This document shows, piece after piece, positions 647-22,395 of a stretch of DNA of 59,616 bases; position 1 is the stretch's first letter; every line of letters begins with the position of its first letter. The notes under the pieces are model-generated. The model made no database searches. It saw only the letters and a list, made by a program, of their open reading frames with translations, and was not told the origin of the DNA. The translations under genes were made by a program, and so were the position numbers. This DNA comes from Candidatus Undinarchaeota archaeon (GTDB lineage: Archaea > Undinarchaeota > Undinarchaeia > Undinarchaeales > UBA543), in assembly GCA_964567575.1 (NCBI GenBank), contig CAZMMZ010000006.1:7004-66619 (forward strand), given 5' to 3'.

Positions 647-1294
647 TTATTCGTATTTTCCAACAATACACATATGATCTTTTTCAAATGGATCTAAATC
701 AATTCTTTCAATAACTTTAAAGTGAGTATACATCTGGTTTGCAACCTCATTGAAAATCTTTTGCGGGCTTCTGGTTACATCAATTGATCTGGCTTTAACC
801 ATTAAGAAAACATATCCGCCTTTTTTCAAAAACATATCTGCATTCTTTTTTAAAATATCAACTTGTGTTTTCTGAGCTACATCTTCGTAAATAATATCTA
901 CTTTTGGAACAAGATCTTTGTAAGCATCAACATGATTTGCACTTTCTAAAATTGGTGCAAGGTTTCTACGATTTAATGCAAGTTGATAAAAATCAGACAT
1001 TGGACGTGGAGCAAATTCAACACCAAAAACCATCCCGTTTGGACATAAATCTGAAATGTGTGAAGGGGTTGTCCCATTACCAGCTCCAAGATAAAGTACT
1101 AGTGAATCTTCTTTGAATGGGAATTCTTTTAATCCATTACGAAGTGCTGCTGAAAGTTTTGAACGATATGGGTCCCATATACGATACTCTACACCACCTT
1201 TCTTGTCTAAACGTTCATTGTATACACGCTTTCCTGGTTTTAAATTAAGAGTAGCATAATCTCGTCCAATCTTTTTTAAATATTCTGCATTCAT
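647..1294 (-). CDS. flpA: Fibrillarin-like rRNA/tRNA 2'-O-methyltransferase
   Basis: VYNERL, YRIWDPYRSKLSAA, VLYLGAGNGTTPSHISD, YEDVAQ and KARSIDVT motifs. Confidence 0.97.
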   Translation of the reverse strand: MNAEYLKKIGRDYATLNLKPGKRVYNERLDKKGGVEYRIWDPYRSKLSAALRNGLKEFPFKEDSLVLYLGAGNGTTPSHISDLCPNGMVFGVEFAPRPMSDFYQLALNRRNLAPILESANHVDAYKDLVPKVDIIYEDVAQKTQVDILKKNADMFLKKGGYVFLMVKARSIDVTRSPQKIFNEVANQMYTHFKVIERIDLDPFEKDHMCIVGKYE

Positions 1295-5887: not shown

Positions 5888-8179
5888 ATGACAAAATGTA
5901 GTGATAGACGCACGGCTGCTTCATTAACAATAAAAATAATAATGGCAATTTTTTTGCTTATTATATCTGTTCCATCTGTTCAAGCAGAAGAACAAAAAAG
6001 TTTTGTGTTAAATTCTGATAATCCAAGTTTTACATTTTTTGAATCAAAAATAGTTGAAAATAACTTACCGATTACTATGGAATTCAATGAAGCAAATATT
6101 ATTCTAAAAACAATTAAAATTCCAAATAATGCTACTATCCTTTCTGCAACTATTTCTTTAACTACACTTAATAGATACCACCATATCTTTAATTGTTCAA
6201 ATTCTTGTGATGATTCTGAAAAGTGTGACGCACCGTCTCCTGAAAATTCTTCTAATTGGTCTTGTAATTATAATTCTTGGATGAGTATTCCTTTTACTGC
6301 AACTCGGGGTTGTAATACTCCTAATGCAATAAAAATCGGAGATTATTTTTATGGGGGAGTTGATGCTGGTGATTCTATTTGTAAAATAGATTCCGGGTGT
6401 ACTTGTGAATCATTTGGTCCAAAAAGCTGTATTGGAGAAAGAAAATCTTGTAATAAAGGAGATAATATTTCTGTTGATTGGTGGATAGAAACAATACCTG
6501 ATGGAAATCCATTTGGACCTCCAGATGACCCAGTTGATATCTATCGTATTCCTGCTATATATCGAGCAAGATGGAGAAACCGAGATGGGTGGAAATGTTT
6601 TGATTGGGGAACCCATAACCTTCCTATCGAAGAATTTTACATTATTGATTCTACTAAATCGGTTCAAATGAATTATTCTTATGATTTAGATGCTGGCATA
6701 GATAATCAACAAAATCTTGAATCAACGTGTCCTCAAAATTATCAAAGTGAAGATAAAACTAATTTAACATATCCAACTCCTGCTCTTGATATTGGTAATA
6801 ATGGTGCTGATTGGACCCCTGGACTACAAGAAAACGAGATAGAGTATAATATTAATATCGCAAGTGTTCTTCAAAATTATTTAAATGAAACTGAATGTGA
6901 AAATGATATTTGTGAAATTCCTTTTAACTTTACATCTGAAACAGCCGGAGCATTGCGAATCAATAACATTTCAATTTCATATTCTTATTCACCTGAAGGG
7001 GTGGATAAAAAAGCAGAACTTAATTCCAAAGATATTATGTTAGGAGATACGATTTACAAAGCAGATAGGATAACTTTTGCAAAAGGAAAGAATCAAGATA
7101 TTCTTTTAAAATATTATGACATTAGGAATAATTCTACAACATGCTGGCAAGATAATCAAAAAAAAGATATTGTTGAAATTAATGAAAACAGAGTTTGTGA
7201 TATAGAAGATATCAATTGGGATAAGAATAAAACCCCGGTTAGTATGCTTATTTGGTCTGATCAACACGAACTTGTTGAAGGTCCTTTTTATTCTTCAAAA
7301 GATGCGACAGTTACACCAGTAACAGCAACTTCTTACAAGTTTTCAGCTAGTGTAACGTTTCCAAATAATGAATTAGAAAATTCAACTGTTAATGTCACGT
7401 TAAATTTAGAAAATTTTTCTAATTGGAATAACAGTAATAATTTTACTCTTTATATAGAAGGAAATAAAACAAATTACTCTATTAATGATAAACAGTTAGG
7501 ATTTACTTTTCAATCCACTTTAAAGGGAAATTATTCAATACAAATAAGATATACGATTCCTCCATTAAAATCAATTATATCAAGTAATAGTGGGGTTCCA
7601 GAACCACCTCGTAGTCGTGGGGGTGGGGGGCGTTCATCTCCAAATCCAGAAAAAGAAACAGTAAAAGAATCTTTTGATATTCAATATGACGCTACAATTG
7701 GTCTTTTAGCTCCGGTTTCTAACGAAATCGATATACAAGAAGACCAAGTAACAACAAAAAGTACTCCTATATCCGGCTTTTTGACATTAGCTCAATTGAA
7801 AACTCCAACAAGTAAAATTATTACTGGATTAATTGCAGGAATCTTAATTGTTGTAACACTCGCAACAAGATTAGAATATAAAACTTCATTACCAAAACTT
7901 CCAAAAACAAAACCAAGCACCCCTGTTATTGAACCGCAACTTAACAAACATATGGAAACAATTTTGAAAGGTTTAAGTTTCCGTGAACAAGAAATTTTAA
8001 AAACAATAATGAAACAGGATGGCCATATGACTCAAGCTAGAGTATATCATAAAACTGGAATCCCAACAACTTCACTTTCTCGTTGGATGGATACTTTAGA
8101 ACGAAAAGGTCTTGTTGAATCCTCACGTCGTGGAAAACTAAGAGATTTAAAAGTGACAACGAAATTCACTGGAGATTAA
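5888..8179 (+). CDS. Large secreted Cys-rich protein with TM helix and C-terminal winged HTH (MarR-like)
   Basis: Signal peptide ending VQA, Cys-rich region, Gly/Ser/Pro linker, TM helix IITGLIAGILIVV, then LSFREQEILKTI...TQARVYHKTGIPTTSLSRWMDTLERKGLV wHTH. Confidence 0.8.
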   Translation: MTKCSDRRTAASLTIKIIMAIFLLIISVPSVQAEEQKSFVLNSDNPSFTFFESKIVENNLPITMEFNEANIILKTIKIPNNATILSATISLTTLNRYHHIFNCSNSCDDSEKCDAPSPENSSNWSCNYNSWMSIPFTATRGCNTPNAIKIGDYFYGGVDAGDSICKIDSGCTCESFGPKSCIGERKSCNKGDNISVDWWIETIPDGNPFGPPDDPVDIYRIPAIYRARWRNRDGWKCFDWGTHNLPIEEFYIIDSTKSVQMNYSYDLDAGIDNQQNLESTCPQNYQSEDKTNLTYPTPALDIGNNGADWTPGLQENEIEYNINIASVLQNYLNETECENDICEIPFNFTSETAGALRINNISISYSYSPEGVDKKAELNSKDIMLGDTIYKADRITFAKGKNQDILLKYYDIRNNSTTCWQDNQKKDIVEINENRVCDIEDINWDKNKTPVSMLIWSDQHELVEGPFYSSKDATVTPVTATSYKFSASVTFPNNELENSTVNVTLNLENFSNWNNSNNFTLYIEGNKTNYSINDKQLGFTFQSTLKGNYSIQIRYTIPPLKSIISSNSGVPEPPRSRGGGGRSSPNPEKETVKESFDIQYDATIGLLAPVSNEIDIQEDQVTTKSTPISGFLTLAQLKTPTSKIITGLIAGILIVVTLATRLEYKTSLPKLPKTKPSTPVIEPQLNKHMETILKGLSFREQEILKTIMKQDGHMTQARVYHKTGIPTTSLSRWMDTLERKGLVESSRRGKLRDLKVTTKFTGD

Positions 8180-12229: not shown

Positions 12230-12820
12230 ATGGCAAGTATAAAATACGCATATCAAGGTGAGAACGAAAATACAGCTCGAGCTTTGGCTCGAAATGTCAG
12301 AATCTCAAACAAAGAAGCGTATGAAGCCGCAAATGCAGCTCGGGGAAAGACAGTTACACGAGCAAAGAAATTCTTTGCAAATGTTATTGAAACTAAAGAA
12401 GCAATCCCATATAAACGATATAATAGTGGTGTTCCACATCGAGCTGGAATTGGCCCAGGAAGATATCCAAAAAACACTTCACAAGCTATGATCAAACTAT
12501 TGAATGAAGTTGAAGCAAATGCAGAAGCACGCGGCCTAAACACTGATGTTCTTAAAATAACACATCTTGCAGTTCATAAAGCAACCCAATTACGAGGAAG
12601 CTTCAAAGGATCTTCACAATATAGTCCAATGACACACATTGAAATTATTGTAAAAGAAATGGAAGAATCAAAAAAAGCTACAAAACCTGAAAAGAAAGAA
12701 GAACCAGTAGAAAAAAAAGAAACCAAAAAAGAAGAAAAACCTTCTGAGAAAAAGGAAGAGAAAAAAATTGAACCAAAAAAAGAAGAAAAAAAACCTGACA
12801 AAAAGGAGGATTCACAATAA
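12230..12820 (+). CDS. rpl22: 50S ribosomal protein uL22 with Lys/Glu-rich tail
   Basis: GRYPKN, NAEARGLN and THIEII motifs. Confidence 0.96.
   Translation: MASIKYAYQGENENTARALARNVRISNKEAYEAANAARGKTVTRAKKFFANVIETKEAIPYKRYNSGVPHRAGIGPGRYPKNTSQAMIKLLNEVEANAEARGLNTDVLKITHLAVHKATQLRGSFKGSSQYSPMTHIEIIVKEMEESKKATKPEKKEEPVEKKETKKEEKPSEKKEEKKIEPKKEEKKPDKKEDSQ
12770..12810 (+). repeat. Dispersed tail/SD repeat, copy 1 (end of rpl22)
   Basis: 39 of 41 nt identical to 15305-15345 (end of rpl24). Confidence 0.75.
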
Positions 12821-13602
12821 TGGCAATTGAAAGAAAATTCATCTTAGAACAACTCAAAAAACTTAAAATTCACCAATATATCCATGGAGAACTTGATAGA
12901 GTCGGTTGTGGAGACATTGAGGTAAAAAGAACACCTTTAGGAAATCGTGTTGTAATCCACTCTACTCGTCCTGGTCTTGTAATTGGAAGGAAAGGGAAAA
13001 ATATTGAGATGCTTACAAACGCTCTCAAAAATCGTTTCAAAATTGATAATCCACAAATCGAAGTTAAAGAAATCGCAAAACCAGAATATGACCCAACAAT
13101 AATGGCAACACAACTTGCGGGAACTCTTGAAAGAGGAATTCATTTCCGAAGATCTTCATACGGTCTTGTAAGACAAATCATGAAGTCAGGAGCACTTGGT
13201 TGTGAAATCACAATTTGCGGAAAAGTAAGTGGTGGACGAACAAGAACTGAAAAATTCAAAGCTGGATACATAAAACACTGTGGAGATACTGCAGATAAAT
13301 ATGTAAAAAATGCAGTTACTCAAGCAAAATTAAAAGCTGGTGTTCTTGGAATAAAAGTAAAAATCACCCCTCCAGTAACTGGAGCATCCCGATTCAATCA
13401 ATTAGAATTAATAAAAGCAAAACCTGAAGAACCAAAAGAAGAGAAAAAAGAAGAACCGATCGAAAAGAAAGAACAGGTGAAAGAAGAAAAACAAGAATCA
13501 AAAAAAGAAGAAAAGAAAGAAAAACCAAAAGCAAGCAAAAGCAAAACAGATAAAAAAGAAAAGAAAGAGAAAAAACCTGATAAAAAGGAGGAAAAGAAAT
13601 AA
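12820..13602 (+). CDS. rps3: 30S ribosomal protein uS3 with Lys/Glu-rich tail
   Basis: KH-domain RPGLVIGRKG; LERGIHFRR and GVLGIKVKI motifs. Confidence 0.97.
   Translation: MAIERKFILEQLKKLKIHQYIHGELDRVGCGDIEVKRTPLGNRVVIHSTRPGLVIGRKGKNIEMLTNALKNRFKIDNPQIEVKEIAKPEYDPTIMATQLAGTLERGIHFRRSSYGLVRQIMKSGALGCEITICGKVSGGRTRTEKFKAGYIKHCGDTADKYVKNAVTQAKLKAGVLGIKVKITPPVTGASRFNQLELIKAKPEEPKEEKKEEPIEKKEQVKEEKQESKKEEKKEKPKASKSKTDKKEKKEKKPDKKEEKK
13566..13600 (+). repeat. Dispersed tail/SD repeat, copy 2 (end of rps3)
   Basis: 34 of 35 nt identical to 15319-15353. Confidence 0.75.
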
Positions 13603-13811
13603 TGGCTGTAATAAGAACCAGTGAACTTCGGTCAATGACTGAAAAAGAACTAAGTGCTAAACTTACAGAAATTGAAAAAGAAATTACAAGCCAAAATGCA
13701 AAACTTGCTGCTGGTGGTATGGCTGATAATCCTGGCAAACTAGCTGAAATGAAAAAGATAGTTGCGAGAATAAAAACAATTTCAAAGGAGAAAAAAATAA
13801 GATATGAGTGA
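13602..13811 (+). CDS. rpl29: 50S ribosomal protein uL29
   Basis: ELRSM, NPGKL..MKK.VARIKT motifs. Confidence 0.96.
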
Positions 13812-14109
13812 AATCTGCAATAAATGTGGATTGCCCAAGGAACTTTGTGCCTGCGGCGATATAGCCAAAGAGACACAAAGTGCAATAAAACTCTACACTG
13901 ATAAAAGACGATACGGAAAATACGTAACAATCATTGAAGGTGTAGAACAAGACTCTGCGGATGGAGATCTTGGCGCATTTGCAAAAGAGCTAAAAAGTCA
14001 CTGTGCTTGCGGTGGAACTGTAAAAGATGGAAAAATCGAACTACAAGGAAACCACATAAAAAAAGTGAAAGAAAAGCTCGCAAATATGGGCTTCAGCATT
14101 GGAAAATAA
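13804..14109 (+). CDS. sui1: Translation initiation factor SUI1/aIF1 homolog
   Basis: N-terminal [11 protein letters not shown]; KRRYGK.VT and [10 protein letters not shown]...IELQG motifs. Confidence 0.96.
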
Positions 14110-14134
14110 TAATCAATCATAAACGGTGAAAAAA

Positions 14135-14437
14135 ATGACTAAGGAAGAATGTATTGACAAGAACTGCCCACAGCACGGGACAATAAGCAAGCGAGGCTTT
14201 AAACTAGAAGGTACTGTTGTCTCTGATAAAATGAAAAAAAGCGTAGTTGTTGAAATAAACCGCGTTAGAAAAATCCAAAAGTTCAAACGATATGAAAAAA
14301 GACGAACAAAAATTCATGCTCACAACTCATCTTGCATTAATGCAAAAAAAGGAGACATTGTTGTAATACGCGAATGCAAACCAATCAGCAAAACAAAATC
14401 CTTTGTTGTTGTAGAGAAAAAAGAGGATAAACAGTAA
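14135..14437 (+). CDS. rps17: 30S ribosomal protein uS17
   Basis: [15 protein letters not shown] and ECKPISKTK motifs. ATG 14135 chosen because GGTGA lies just upstream. Confidence 0.96.
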
Positions 14438-14439
14438 AA

Positions 14440-14868
14440 ATGGGAAAAGTAAGAAAGAAACTCAAAGCACACATAAAAGTGAAGGGCAATATAACCAAAT
14501 CTTTACCAGCTAAGGCTCGACTTGTGTGCGCTGATAATACTGGAGCAAAGATCCTTGAAATAATCACAGTTAAATTACATAAAGGCAGAAAACGACAACT
14601 TGCAAAAGCAGGAATCGGCGACATGGTTATTTGCTCTGTCAAAGAAGGTGGACCTGACATAAAAAAAACAGTTGTTCCTGCAATCGTAATCAGACAAAAG
14701 AAAGAAGTATTCCGTGCTGACGGCACTCGAATGAAATTCGAAGATAATGCAGCTGTTATAGTAACGCCTGAAGGAGAACCTAAAGGAAGTGAAATACGAG
14801 GACCGGTTGCAAGAGAAGCAATACAAAAATGGTCTGGTATTGCAAGCGCTGCAAAAATAGTGGTATAA
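14440..14868 (+). CDS. rpl14: 50S ribosomal protein uL14
   Basis: [13 protein letters not shown] and FEDNAAV motifs. Confidence 0.97.
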
Positions 14869-14869
14869 A

Positions 14870-15355
14870 ATGAAAACAAAATATGCAAACACATGGAAAT
14901 GCTCTGTACAACCAAGAAAACAGAGGAAATATCTAGCGAATGCTCCACTTCATGTTAAACAAAAATTAGTTTCAGTTCATTTAGATAAGAAATTAAGAGA
15001 AAAATTAGGACGACGCTCCTTATCGGTTAGAAAAGGAGATGAAGTAAAAATAATGCGCGGAAAAAGAAAAGGAAGTCAAGCAAAAGTTTCTGCAGTAGAT
15101 CTAAAAAAAGGCCGTGTTTATTTGGAAGGACAAACAAGAGATAACATCCGAGGAACTAAAGTAATTATCCCATTTGCACCTTCAAATTTGCTTATGATCA
15201 CTAGTGTTGATGACAAACGAAGAAACAGAAAAGGAACAAAAGTTGTTAAGAAAAAAATTGAACCAAAACCATCAACAAAAAAAGAAAAACCAGTGAAAAA
15301 AGTAGAACCAAAAAAAGAAGAGAAAAAACCTGAGAAAAAGGAGGAAAAGAAATGA
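14870..15355 (+). CDS. rpl24: 50S ribosomal protein uL24 with Lys/Glu-rich tail
   Basis: QPRKQRK...NAPLH and VRKGDEVKIMRG (KOW) motifs. Confidence 0.96.
   Translation: MKTKYANTWKCSVQPRKQRKYLANAPLHVKQKLVSVHLDKKLREKLGRRSLSVRKGDEVKIMRGKRKGSQAKVSAVDLKKGRVYLEGQTRDNIRGTKVIIPFAPSNLLMITSVDDKRRNRKGTKVVKKKIEPKPSTKKEKPVKKVEPKKEEKKPEKKEEKK
15305..15353 (+). repeat. Dispersed tail/SD repeat, copy 3 (end of rpl24)
   Basis: Matches both the rpl22 and rps3 3' ends; contains AAGGAGGA at 15338-15345. Confidence 0.75.
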
Positions 15356-18930: not shown

Positions 18931-19709
18931 AACCAAAGAGAAGACAATTCAAAAAAAGACAAGAAAAAGAACCAAAAATATGGATTCCTTGTACTGAACT
19001 CGGAAAACTTGTAAAATCTGAAAAAATAGACAGCCTAGATACAATTTGGGAACGCGGTAAAACAATAAAAGAACCTGAAATTGTTGATTTCTTTTTATCT
19101 GGACTTGAAGAAAGAATCCTAAAAATCGGAAAAGGAAAACGTCCATTCAGATGGGTTCAAAGAATGACTGATTCAGGTCGAAGAAGCAAATATGTTGTTG
19201 CAGCTGCTACTGGTAATAAAGATGGATATGTTGGTGTAGGTGTTGGCCGAGCAAAAGAATACGGAACAGCAATTAGTAGTGCAATAAGAAAAGCAAAATT
19301 AAATACTATCAAAGTTGAGCGTGGATGTGGATCATGGGATTGCGGTTGTTCTGAAGAACACTCAATTCCAACAGAAGTTTCAGGAAAATGCGGAAGTGTT
19401 CAAATCAAACTTATACCAGCTCCACAAGGAACTGGATTAGCAGTCAGTGATATTTCAAGAGATGTTTTAGAACTTGCAGGTGTTAAAGATCTTTGGTCTG
19501 TTTCAAAAGGGCATACAGCAACACGAACAAACACTGCTCTTGCAACATTTGAAACTTTGAAAGAACTTTCAAAAATCAAACTCCTTAAACCACGAGTAAG
19601 AAAAAAAAGAGTAAAAGAACCAGTTAAAGAAGAAAAACCTGAAGAGAAAAAAGCAGAAGTAAAAAAGGAAGAAACAAAACCTGAAAAGAAAGAGGAAGAA
19701 AAGAAATGA
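18927..19709 (+). CDS. rps5: 30S ribosomal protein uS5 with Lys/Glu-rich tail
   Basis: VQRMTDSGRR, GCGSW.CGC and LIPAPQGTGL motifs. Confidence 0.97.
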   Translation: MKPKRRQFKKRQEKEPKIWIPCTELGKLVKSEKIDSLDTIWERGKTIKEPEIVDFFLSGLEERILKIGKGKRPFRWVQRMTDSGRRSKYVVAAATGNKDGYVGVGVGRAKEYGTAISSAIRKAKLNTIKVERGCGSWDCGCSEEHSIPTEVSGKCGSVQIKLIPAPQGTGLAVSDISRDVLELAGVKDLWSVSKGHTATRTNTALATFETLKELSKIKLLKPRVRKKRVKEPVKEEKPEEKKAEVKKEETKPEKKEEEKK

Positions 19710-20527: not shown

Positions 20528-21937
20528 ATGTCATTTAAGACTCTACTTCAATCACTTCCAAGTGTCGTTCAACCAAAAGGACAACTTGGTTTTAAAGATA
20601 AGATTAAGTGGACTACAATAGTTCTTGTTACATTTTATATTCTCGGAGAAATTACACTGTTTGGACTTGAAGCAGGAGCAACAGGAGATATTTTTGGTGA
20701 ATTGCGTGTCATTATGGCAAGTAAATTCGGTACCATAATCACACTTGGTATTGGACCGATTGTTATGGCATCGATTATTCTTCAGCTTTTATCTGGAGCT
20801 GGTGTATTCAAATTTGATATGACGACAAAGGATGGAAAAGCAACATATCAAGGTGCTCAGAAACTTCTTGCAGTTGTGTTTACACTTTTTGAAGGAGGAA
20901 TTTTAGTATTTGCAGGACAAATCGTACCGTCTACTGCGCTTGTTGCATCTTATGGTGGGTTAATAGCGAATAGCATATTACTATTACAAATAATGATAGG
21001 AGGGTTGATTATATTATATCTAGACGAGATAATATCGAAATGGGGCTTTGGTTCAGGAATTGGACTTTTCATTGCAGCTGGAGTATCATATGAAATTATT
21101 CTCAGAGCAGTTGATCCAATGAGACTTGGTGCAGGACAGCCAATAAACGGTGCAATCCCCGCTTTCGTATCTTCATTTGCAAGCGGATCAATACAATTTA
21201 TCCGGCAGTATCCAAATGACATGCTAGCGTTATTTGCGACAATATTGGTGTTTGTGGTTACGATGTATGCTCAAAGTATTAAAGTTGAAGTGCCGATTTC
21301 GTACGGACGTATACGAGGACTTTCACGACGCTATCCATTACCATTTGTTTACGCTTCTAACATGCCAGTTATTTTCCTTGCAGCTTTAATTGCAAACTTC
21401 AGATTCTGGGTTGCAATCTTACAAAAAGCTGGTGTAAGAATATTTGGTTATTTTGACCCGAGTGGAGCTGCACACGGAGCAATATCTTACATCTTACCAT
21501 ATAATCGATTTGTAAAAGACATCTTTTTCCACACAGTTGGTTACAGCGAAGTGTTACATGCTGTCTGTTACATGTCTGTAATGATAATTGGTTCTATTCT
21601 TTTCTCAAAACTGTGGGTTAGTGTATCTGGAATGACATCAGCTGACTTATCTGAAAAATTATCAAACGCAGGAATGCAAATACCTGGATTTAGAAGTGAT
21701 AAACGAGTTATTGAAAAAGTTCTACAGCGATATGTCCCATATCTAACGGTTCTAGGTGGTGCATTTGTTGGTTTACTTGCAGCAGCAGCAGAGATGACTG
21801 GAGCGCTGGGTGGTGGTACTGGAGTACTGCTTACCGTAGGTATTATTTACCAACTCTATCAACAAATTGCTTCTGAACAACTTGCAGAAATGCATCCAGC
21901 AATTCGAAGCTTTATGGGCGAAGGAGGAATATTATAA
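20528..21937 (+). CDS. secY: Protein translocase subunit SecY
   Basis: LGIGPIV.ASII, KWGFGSGIGLFI, YASNMPVI and GTGVLL motifs; about 10 TM helices. Confidence 0.98.
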   Translation: MSFKTLLQSLPSVVQPKGQLGFKDKIKWTTIVLVTFYILGEITLFGLEAGATGDIFGELRVIMASKFGTIITLGIGPIVMASIILQLLSGAGVFKFDMTTKDGKATYQGAQKLLAVVFTLFEGGILVFAGQIVPSTALVASYGGLIANSILLLQIMIGGLIILYLDEIISKWGFGSGIGLFIAAGVSYEIILRAVDPMRLGAGQPINGAIPAFVSSFASGSIQFIRQYPNDMLALFATILVFVVTMYAQSIKVEVPISYGRIRGLSRRYPLPFVYASNMPVIFLAALIANFRFWVAILQKAGVRIFGYFDPSGAAHGAISYILPYNRFVKDIFFHTVGYSEVLHAVCYMSVMIIGSILFSKLWVSVSGMTSADLSEKLSNAGMQIPGFRSDKRVIEKVLQRYVPYLTVLGGAFVGLLAAAAEMTGALGGGTGVLLTVGIIYQLYQQIASEQLAEMHPAIRSFMGEGGIL

Positions 21938-22395
21938 TGATAAATTTACTAAATTATCCAATAGTGTTTATTGGAACAGTTTCAGTTGTTCTTTCACTGA
22001 TTTTAACACTTGTAAATAAAGTGATTGTAGATCAAGGGAGAATGAAAGAAATCCAGAAAAAAGTTTCAGTGTATAACAAGGAACTTATGAAAGCAACAAA
22101 ATCAAAAGATCAAGCAAAAGTTGCCGAAATGAACAAAGAAAAACCACAAATTATGCAAATGCAACAAGAAATGATGAAAATGCAAATGCCGATGTTCATG
22201 TCAATGGTTCCATTCATTCTGGTTTTCATGTTCCTTAAAAGACTGGCAGTATCAATGGATTGGGGCGTTATAATTCAACTCCCATTTAATTTGCCAGTAC
22301 TAGGGATAAATAATTCTTTCACATGGCTTGGATGGTACATCCTTTGTTCACTTCCATTCACAGCATTGTTCAGAAAGATTCTTGGCGTAAAATGA
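21937..22395 (+). CDS. DUF106 / EMC3-TMCO1-like (Oxa1 superfamily) membrane protein
   Basis: TM, coiled coil, Met-rich segment, TM; GWYILCS; conserved position after secY. Confidence 0.88.
   Translation: MINLLNYPIVFIGTVSVVLSLILTLVNKVIVDQGRMKEIQKKVSVYNKELMKATKSKDQAKVAEMNKEKPQIMQMQQEMMKMQMPMFMSMVPFILVFMFLKRLAVSMDWGVIIQLPFNLPVLGINNSFTWLGWYILCSLPFTALFRKILGVK

Follow-up and report, generated by a model that had tools for sequence, protein, structure and literature searches.

Overlapping gene pairs that carry an intragenic Shine-Dalgarno (SD) motif are coupled by termination-reinitiation, and ribosomal protein gene pairs were also tested for this, in Haloferax (Huber et al., 2019; PMC6728339). In this study, we analyzed a stretch of 59,616 nucleotides, hereafter the window, which contains an archaeal ribosomal protein operon running from L3 to L15 plus SecY. 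This is the main operon of the host, a small DPANN archaeon of the Undinarchaeota group whose genome comprises 745 kb in 18 contigs, with a guanine plus cytosine content of 36%. Four genes of the operon, encoding L22, S3, L24 and S5, end in tails rich in lysine, glutamate and proline (K/E/P), and the last codons of these tails also appear to spell the SD of the next gene. The gene pairs concerned resemble those of the Haloferax work in that they are co-directional, overlap by 1 or 4 nt at their stop and start codons and have a strong SD in the last codons of the upstream gene. Unlike in the described pairs, the SD is carried here by low-complexity K/E tail codons, and for this reason a K-E-E/D/V-K-K ending recurs on several non-homologous proteins.

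Repeated genes of prokaryotes, such as tufA and tufB, undergo concerted evolution by ectopic gene conversion. As in tufA/tufB, the copies described below are closer to each other within a genome than to their orthologues, and they show short mosaic boundaries. In contrast to tufA/tufB, the partners are not paralogues but essential genes that are unrelated and have nothing but purine-rich tail DNA in common, and the tracts are very short (~35-55 nt) and lack any excess of synonymous identity. In-frame palindromic repeats inside genes are known as well, namely the Rickettsia palindromic elements, and a two-hairpin element found in frame in ribosomal protein tails of two congeners of the host (G001 and G002) resembles them. 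The stretch studied in the window is not a palindromic element, because it has neither a hairpin nor dispersed copies. Finally, lineage-specific charged low-complexity extensions of ribosomal proteins, including archaeal S3, have been described, such as K/E/A regions in the ribosomal proteins of prokaryotes (PMC6821194) and the histone H1-like lysine-rich extensions of mosquito RpL23a and RpS6 (Hernandez and Fallon, 2007, via PMC11764897). The tails of the window are of this general kind; these reports deal with what the extensions are composed of and with how they arose independently, and not with the sharing of tails or the coding of an SD at their ends. Our search of the literature on the sharing of tails between ribosomal protein genes found no paper. 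What we add here is that the start signal of the following gene determines where such a stretch ends.

Gene ends and the start signal of the next gene

The four tails end at stop/start overlaps, TAATG at L22/S3 and S3/L29 and ATGA at L24/S4e and S5/L30. Their last ~18 nt consist of an in-frame SD, two spacer codons and a stop codon that overlaps the next ATG. We found AAGGAGGA upstream of the ATGs of S3 and L29 at a distance of 9 nt in both cases, and upstream of that of S4e at 6 nt, which confirms the spacing of 6-9 nt given in the initial annotation of this DNA; S5 ends in the looser version that had also been noted there, with a GAGG in place of the octamer (Table 1). The AGGAGG of the motif is complementary to the CCUCCU in the 16S ribosomal RNA of the two congeners and of two other members of the order (G005 and G006), all of which end in GAUCACCUCCU; the 16S of the host itself breaks off where a contig ends, and its 3' half is missing from the assembly. 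Moreover, GGAGG shows a peak across the whole genome at 7-10 nt upstream of the start codons, which the spacing at the junctions fits, and the junction RNA is unstructured.

The choice of codons is also specific to this position. The tails use AAA in 65 of 79 cases and GAA in 44 of 55, as had been pointed out for the remaining tail codons, and the AAG-GAG pair is therefore unusual there. Among the K-E dicodons of 13 K/E tails, GAG was used in all four at a junction, as compared with 5 of the 62 elsewhere (Fisher P = 2e-4), and the only other AAG-GAG in those tails is itself located 10 nt before a start. The proposal that these ends are dual-coding is thus borne out by the in-frame AGGAGG matching the 16S of the congeners, by its preferred spacing, by the unstructured stretch and by the position-specific codons.

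Placing the SD inside the end of the upstream gene is nothing special to K/E tails. An SD-like motif lies inside the preceding gene for most internal genes of the operon, and other peptides carry it, namely R-R-M in L30, K-V in L32e, G-G in L18 and E-G-G in SecY. At the SecY end (window 21905-21940), AAGGAGGA itself stands 9 nt before the next ATG and encodes E-G-G, which reveals that the octamer can be written with a different peptide. Within the genus, K-E-(E/D/V)-K-K-stop endings recur in orthologues of L22, S3, L24, S5 and L4. For S3 and L24 they recur across the order, and the SD motif is kept with varying peptides; in addition, the last 18 nt of the S3 end are conserved in S3 orthologues. 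Since the orthologues of each gene separately preserve the SD, the spacer and the stop/start overlap, an old parallel constraint explains about 16-18 nt of the match between S3 and L24. Altogether, these data suggest that selection acts on the SD motif itself and not on the peptide, and the SD reading, which invokes an ordinary mechanism, appears well supported in silico.

We propose that, wherever such a tail ends a gene at one of these four overlaps, the last five codons are doubly used, encoding K-E-(E/D)-x-x and at the same time spelling AGGAGG plus a spacer of 6-10 nt. The SD would pair with the 3' end of the 16S and help a terminating or a new ribosome to start the downstream gene; in this sense, we infer that the SD is functional and that the overlapping genes are coupled. 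This layer would be ancient, with selection on synonymous sites maintaining it in every gene independently. The stretch of 33-46 nt that precedes the SD, on the other hand, may represent a separate and young layer.

Similarity of the tails upstream of the SD

The identities first reported for these ends, 39/41 nt between L22 and L24 and 34/35 nt between S3 and L24, were reproduced exactly, and the ends of L22 and S3 are identical at 25 of 27 nt (12784-12810 versus 13566-13592). When up to 3 mismatches are allowed, a 23-nt core has exactly three copies in the 745-kb genome, all of them at gene ends and none intergenic; a fourth look-alike of this core, devoid of an SD, lies inside the S3Ae tail. 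The best ungapped scores, 39 for L22-L24 and 32 for S3-L24, were reached by none of 1000 codon shuffles (shuffle maximum, 31). In the 33 nt upstream of the SD, compared in register with the SD as anchor, L22 and L24 are identical at 31 positions. This value did not arise in any of 20,000 runs under the codon shuffle, nor with a first-order Markov model of the codons built from the same tails, and all six pairs among L22, S3, L24 and S5 fall in the upper 2% of the nulls. Moreover, L22-L24 is the most identical long match (49/54) among 105 pairs of real tails.

An in-register matrix of the three genus genomes gave values of 24-31/33 among the L22, S3, L24 and S5 ends of the host and only 11-21/33 for the orthologues in the two congeners. 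A likeness within the genome that exceeds the likeness between orthologues would be the signature of concerted evolution. The 49 of 54 nt common to L22 and L24 include an I/V-E-P landmark. In L24 orthologues, K-K-I-E-P-K stands at the start of the tail, whereas L22 orthologues do not have it, which suggests that copying proceeded from L24 to L22. The last 10 nt of the L22 end are L22's own and delimit a mosaic boundary, and both the L24 and the L22 ends are identical in independent assemblies. Longer copies were found in other members of the order. In G005, copies of 90-120 nt with 96-97% identity (97% in the 120-nt case) are confined to the tails of L22, S3 and L24, and in G006, a 96-nt stretch repeated at 92% is confined to those of L22 and S3. 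These long copies are absent from sister species and are unambiguous cases of local copying. We found no tail sharing at 52 further archaeal operon loci with a length of 4 kb or more, most of which lack such tails, and our search for closer relatives in metagenome contigs found none above 70% L14 identity.

Based on these comparisons, we consider it rather probable that the stretch before the SD (33-46 nt) was copied between tails in this lineage. The four ends would have become alike by DNA copying between purine-rich tails, either through template switching or through ectopic gene conversion. The pair L24 and L22 would show this most clearly, and the copying would be superposed on tandem slippage inside each tail. 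Only non-crossover copying would survive, because essential genes lie between the repeats. The initial annotation had pictured tail and SD as a single module that either spread by gene conversion or slippage or converged under selection for the SD. Spreading as one unit fails for the SD, the spacer and the stop/start overlap, which are old and kept gene by gene in orthologues; only the upstream 33-46 nt look copied or homogenised in this lineage, and the interpretation as a whole is partly supported.

Several observations weigh against copying. Significance is lost when codons are sampled anew from tail usage for a fixed peptide (P = 0.08, 0.34 and 0.40). Hence, the similarity signal resides in which residues stand in which register and not in synonymous sites, and codon identity does not exceed what is expected from codon bias, so that nothing directly marks a recent transfer of DNA. 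This resampling of synonymous codons is the comparison that had been suggested for these ends. Unlinked tails also contain long, less identical runs, such as S6e-L10 (score 41 over 77 nt) and L10-S5 (score 37 over 76 nt, at lower identity than L22-L24), and the K-P-E-K-K-E-E word recurs in the S3Ae, L7Ae and S19e tails as well as in distant L24 orthologues. Because unlinked tails are alike, a shared tail "grammar" or a genome-wide exchange could yield part or much of the likeness. In addition, the orthologue comparison draws on two congeners in an order with 13 species genomes. Given that the synonymous test is not significant, we infer tail copying and do not regard it as proven.

The main rival to copying, which we judge unlikely, is pure convergence with no DNA transfer, where each tail expands a K-P-E-K-K-E-E-like word by slippage and the SD fixes the register. 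The fixed-peptide result is consistent with it, as are the unlinked tails and the distant L24 orthologues that contain the word. So is the build of the L22 tail, which consists of three degenerate 54-nt tandem units, each ending in such a word. The L22 of a near-identical strain (P0121) lacks 17 tail residues between two K-E-E-K repeats (window 12743-12793), a strain-level length polymorphism that likewise fits with slippage. However, the codon Markov model derived from the very tails never gave 31/33, all six pairs of the host genome beat every orthologous comparison, the I/V-E-P landmark is located outside the K/E word, and G005 and G006 provide actual cases in which long stretches of tail were copied.

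It seems even less probable, and indeed quite doubtful, that K-K-P-D/E-K-K-E-E is a short linear peptide motif selected in the four proteins for binding a common partner or an rRNA feature on the ribosome surface. Such a motif would agree with a signal at the level of peptide and register, not of synonymous sites, and with its presence at the S3 end in two of the three genus members. Nevertheless, the L22, L24 and S5 orthologues of the congeners differ upstream of the SD (T-P-T, P-A-P or element-derived residues), tail length varies even between near-identical strains, and the tail is predicted to be featureless, with low confidence. Finally, we rejected as extremely improbable that the stretch arose by in-frame insertion of a small mobile element or is an assembly artefact. 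Congeners do carry the in-frame two-hairpin element in L24, S5, L15 and other tails, and in G005 the repeats are found at a scaffold gap and together with an unusual gene order. However, the stretch in the window has no hairpin (minimum free energy of -2 to -3 kcal/mol, z of about 0), its only three copies all lie at gene ends with none intergenic, and the two-hairpin element has no copy in the host genome. Moreover, the copies, which differ from each other at 1-2 sites, fall below the usual length of assembly k-mers, and independent assemblies encode the same ends.

Tails and repeats in the host and its relatives

K/E/P-rich segments were found in 16 proteins of the host genome, 12 of which are ribosomal. 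The Pfam domains of the tail-bearing proteins end before the tails begin. In the predicted structure of L24, the tail (residues 120-161) has a predicted local distance difference test score of 40-56 and no secondary structure, in agreement with the charged disordered tail assumed at the outset. The proline-punctuated, K/E-rich extensions on at least 12 ribosomal proteins are probably disordered. On contigs C2, C3, C4 and C9 of the host (loci L131-L141), K/E/P(A)-rich extensions occur on S19e, S24e, S6e and S27ae. Further ones at these loci are found on L31e (N-terminal), L10/P0, L7Ae and S3Ae, and the non-ribosomal proteins RpoE and FtsY bear them too. Tail turnover is rapid among relatives, and tails also change by slippage. 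The tail of one L24 orthologue (P0004) contains three exact tandem copies of the 8-residue unit E-S-A-K-A-G-K-P, which indicates recent slippage.

The two-hairpin element is 75-95 nt long and lies in frame and in constant orientation in K/E-rich tails (L24, S5, L15 and other open reading frame ends or starts). A search of the genomes located 6 copies in G002 and another 2 in G001, and the host has none. One copy shows a compensatory change in the second stem, and the element is also present in the L22 tail of P0125. A long stretch of normal complexity common to L24, S5 and L15 of G002 was rejected as proof of gene conversion, as it corresponds to this dispersed element.

At the G005 locus L034 (G005:C3:3000-16300), the S3 gene follows L24 rather than L22. 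An N gap lies inside the L22 tail, and the tails of L22, S3 and L24 are marked by three 90-120 nt repeats that are 96-97% identical. This gene order results either from a repeat-mediated relocation or from mis-scaffolding across the repeats. In other Undinarchaeales and in one metagenome contig (loci L037, L039, L042 and L046), the ribosomal operons contain intergenic repeats of 57-178 nt with 80-97% identity, which are possibly small mobile elements.

Table 1. Positions of the genes, tail stretches and SD motifs in the window, and of repeats in related genomes
Feature	Position	Strand	Remarks
uL22 gene	12230..12820	+	K/E/P-rich C-terminal extension ~12656-12817; open reading frame and neighbors, 54-nt unit spacing
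L22 copy of the common stretch	12757..12810	+	49/54 versus L24 15292-15345; core 39/41 at 12770-12810 (L24 15305-15345)
In-frame SD (codons K-E-D), L22 end	12803..12810	+	9 nt before S3 ATG 12820; TAATG overlap
uS3 gene	12820..13602	+	K/E/P-rich extension ~13421-13599
S3 copy of the common stretch	13566..13600	+	34/35 versus L24 15319-15353
SD, S3 end	13585-13592	+	9 nt before L29 ATG 13602; TAATG overlap
uL24 gene	14870..15355	+	tail ~15230-15352, predicted disordered
L24 copy, hub of the similarity	15292..15353	+	5' part like L22, 3' part like S3
SD, L24 end	15338-15345	+	6 nt before S4e ATG 15352; ATGA overlap
Looser copy, uS5 end	19674..19709	+	26-27/33 versus L24/L22 in register
Weaker SD (GAGG), S5 end	10 nt before L30 ATG 19706	+	ATGA overlap
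Two-hairpin element, L032 (G002)	6343-6437; 1944-2038; 1038-1078		
Two-hairpin element, other G002 copies	C12:23285-23367; C2:10441-10511; C8:54254-54325		
Two-hairpin element, G001	C10:6192-6265; C14:3809-3886		
Intergenic repeats, L037	2575-2685/3497-3594/9160-9265		
Intergenic repeats, L042	2294-2350/6927-6983		
Intergenic repeats, L046	5919-5999/8623-8703		
Intergenic repeats, L039	5109-5276/11027-11204; 3606-3726/6149-6268		

Meaning for ribosomal protein tails in Undinarchaeales

The SD layer provides a clear natural example of a start signal that dictates the C-terminal peptide and the codon choice of the preceding gene. For annotation, it follows that K-E-x-K-K ends are not a protein motif. 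Repeats of this kind also matter for metagenome-assembled genomes, as they can mis-order operons during assembly, which is probably what happened in G005. In a wider sense, many ribosomal protein genes of the Undinarchaeales that are not homologous to each other may share one evolving pool of K/E-rich tails, exchanged by microhomology-driven gene conversion and also acting as landing sites of in-frame hairpin elements, with only the SD-coding last codons pinned by the downstream gene that overlaps them; we give this broader proposal an even chance. If the copy layer is true, tails would need to be trimmed in concatenated ribosomal protein phylogenies, and unrelated essential genes would evolve in concert through their low-complexity tails, which would bear on the origin of disordered ribosomal protein extensions.

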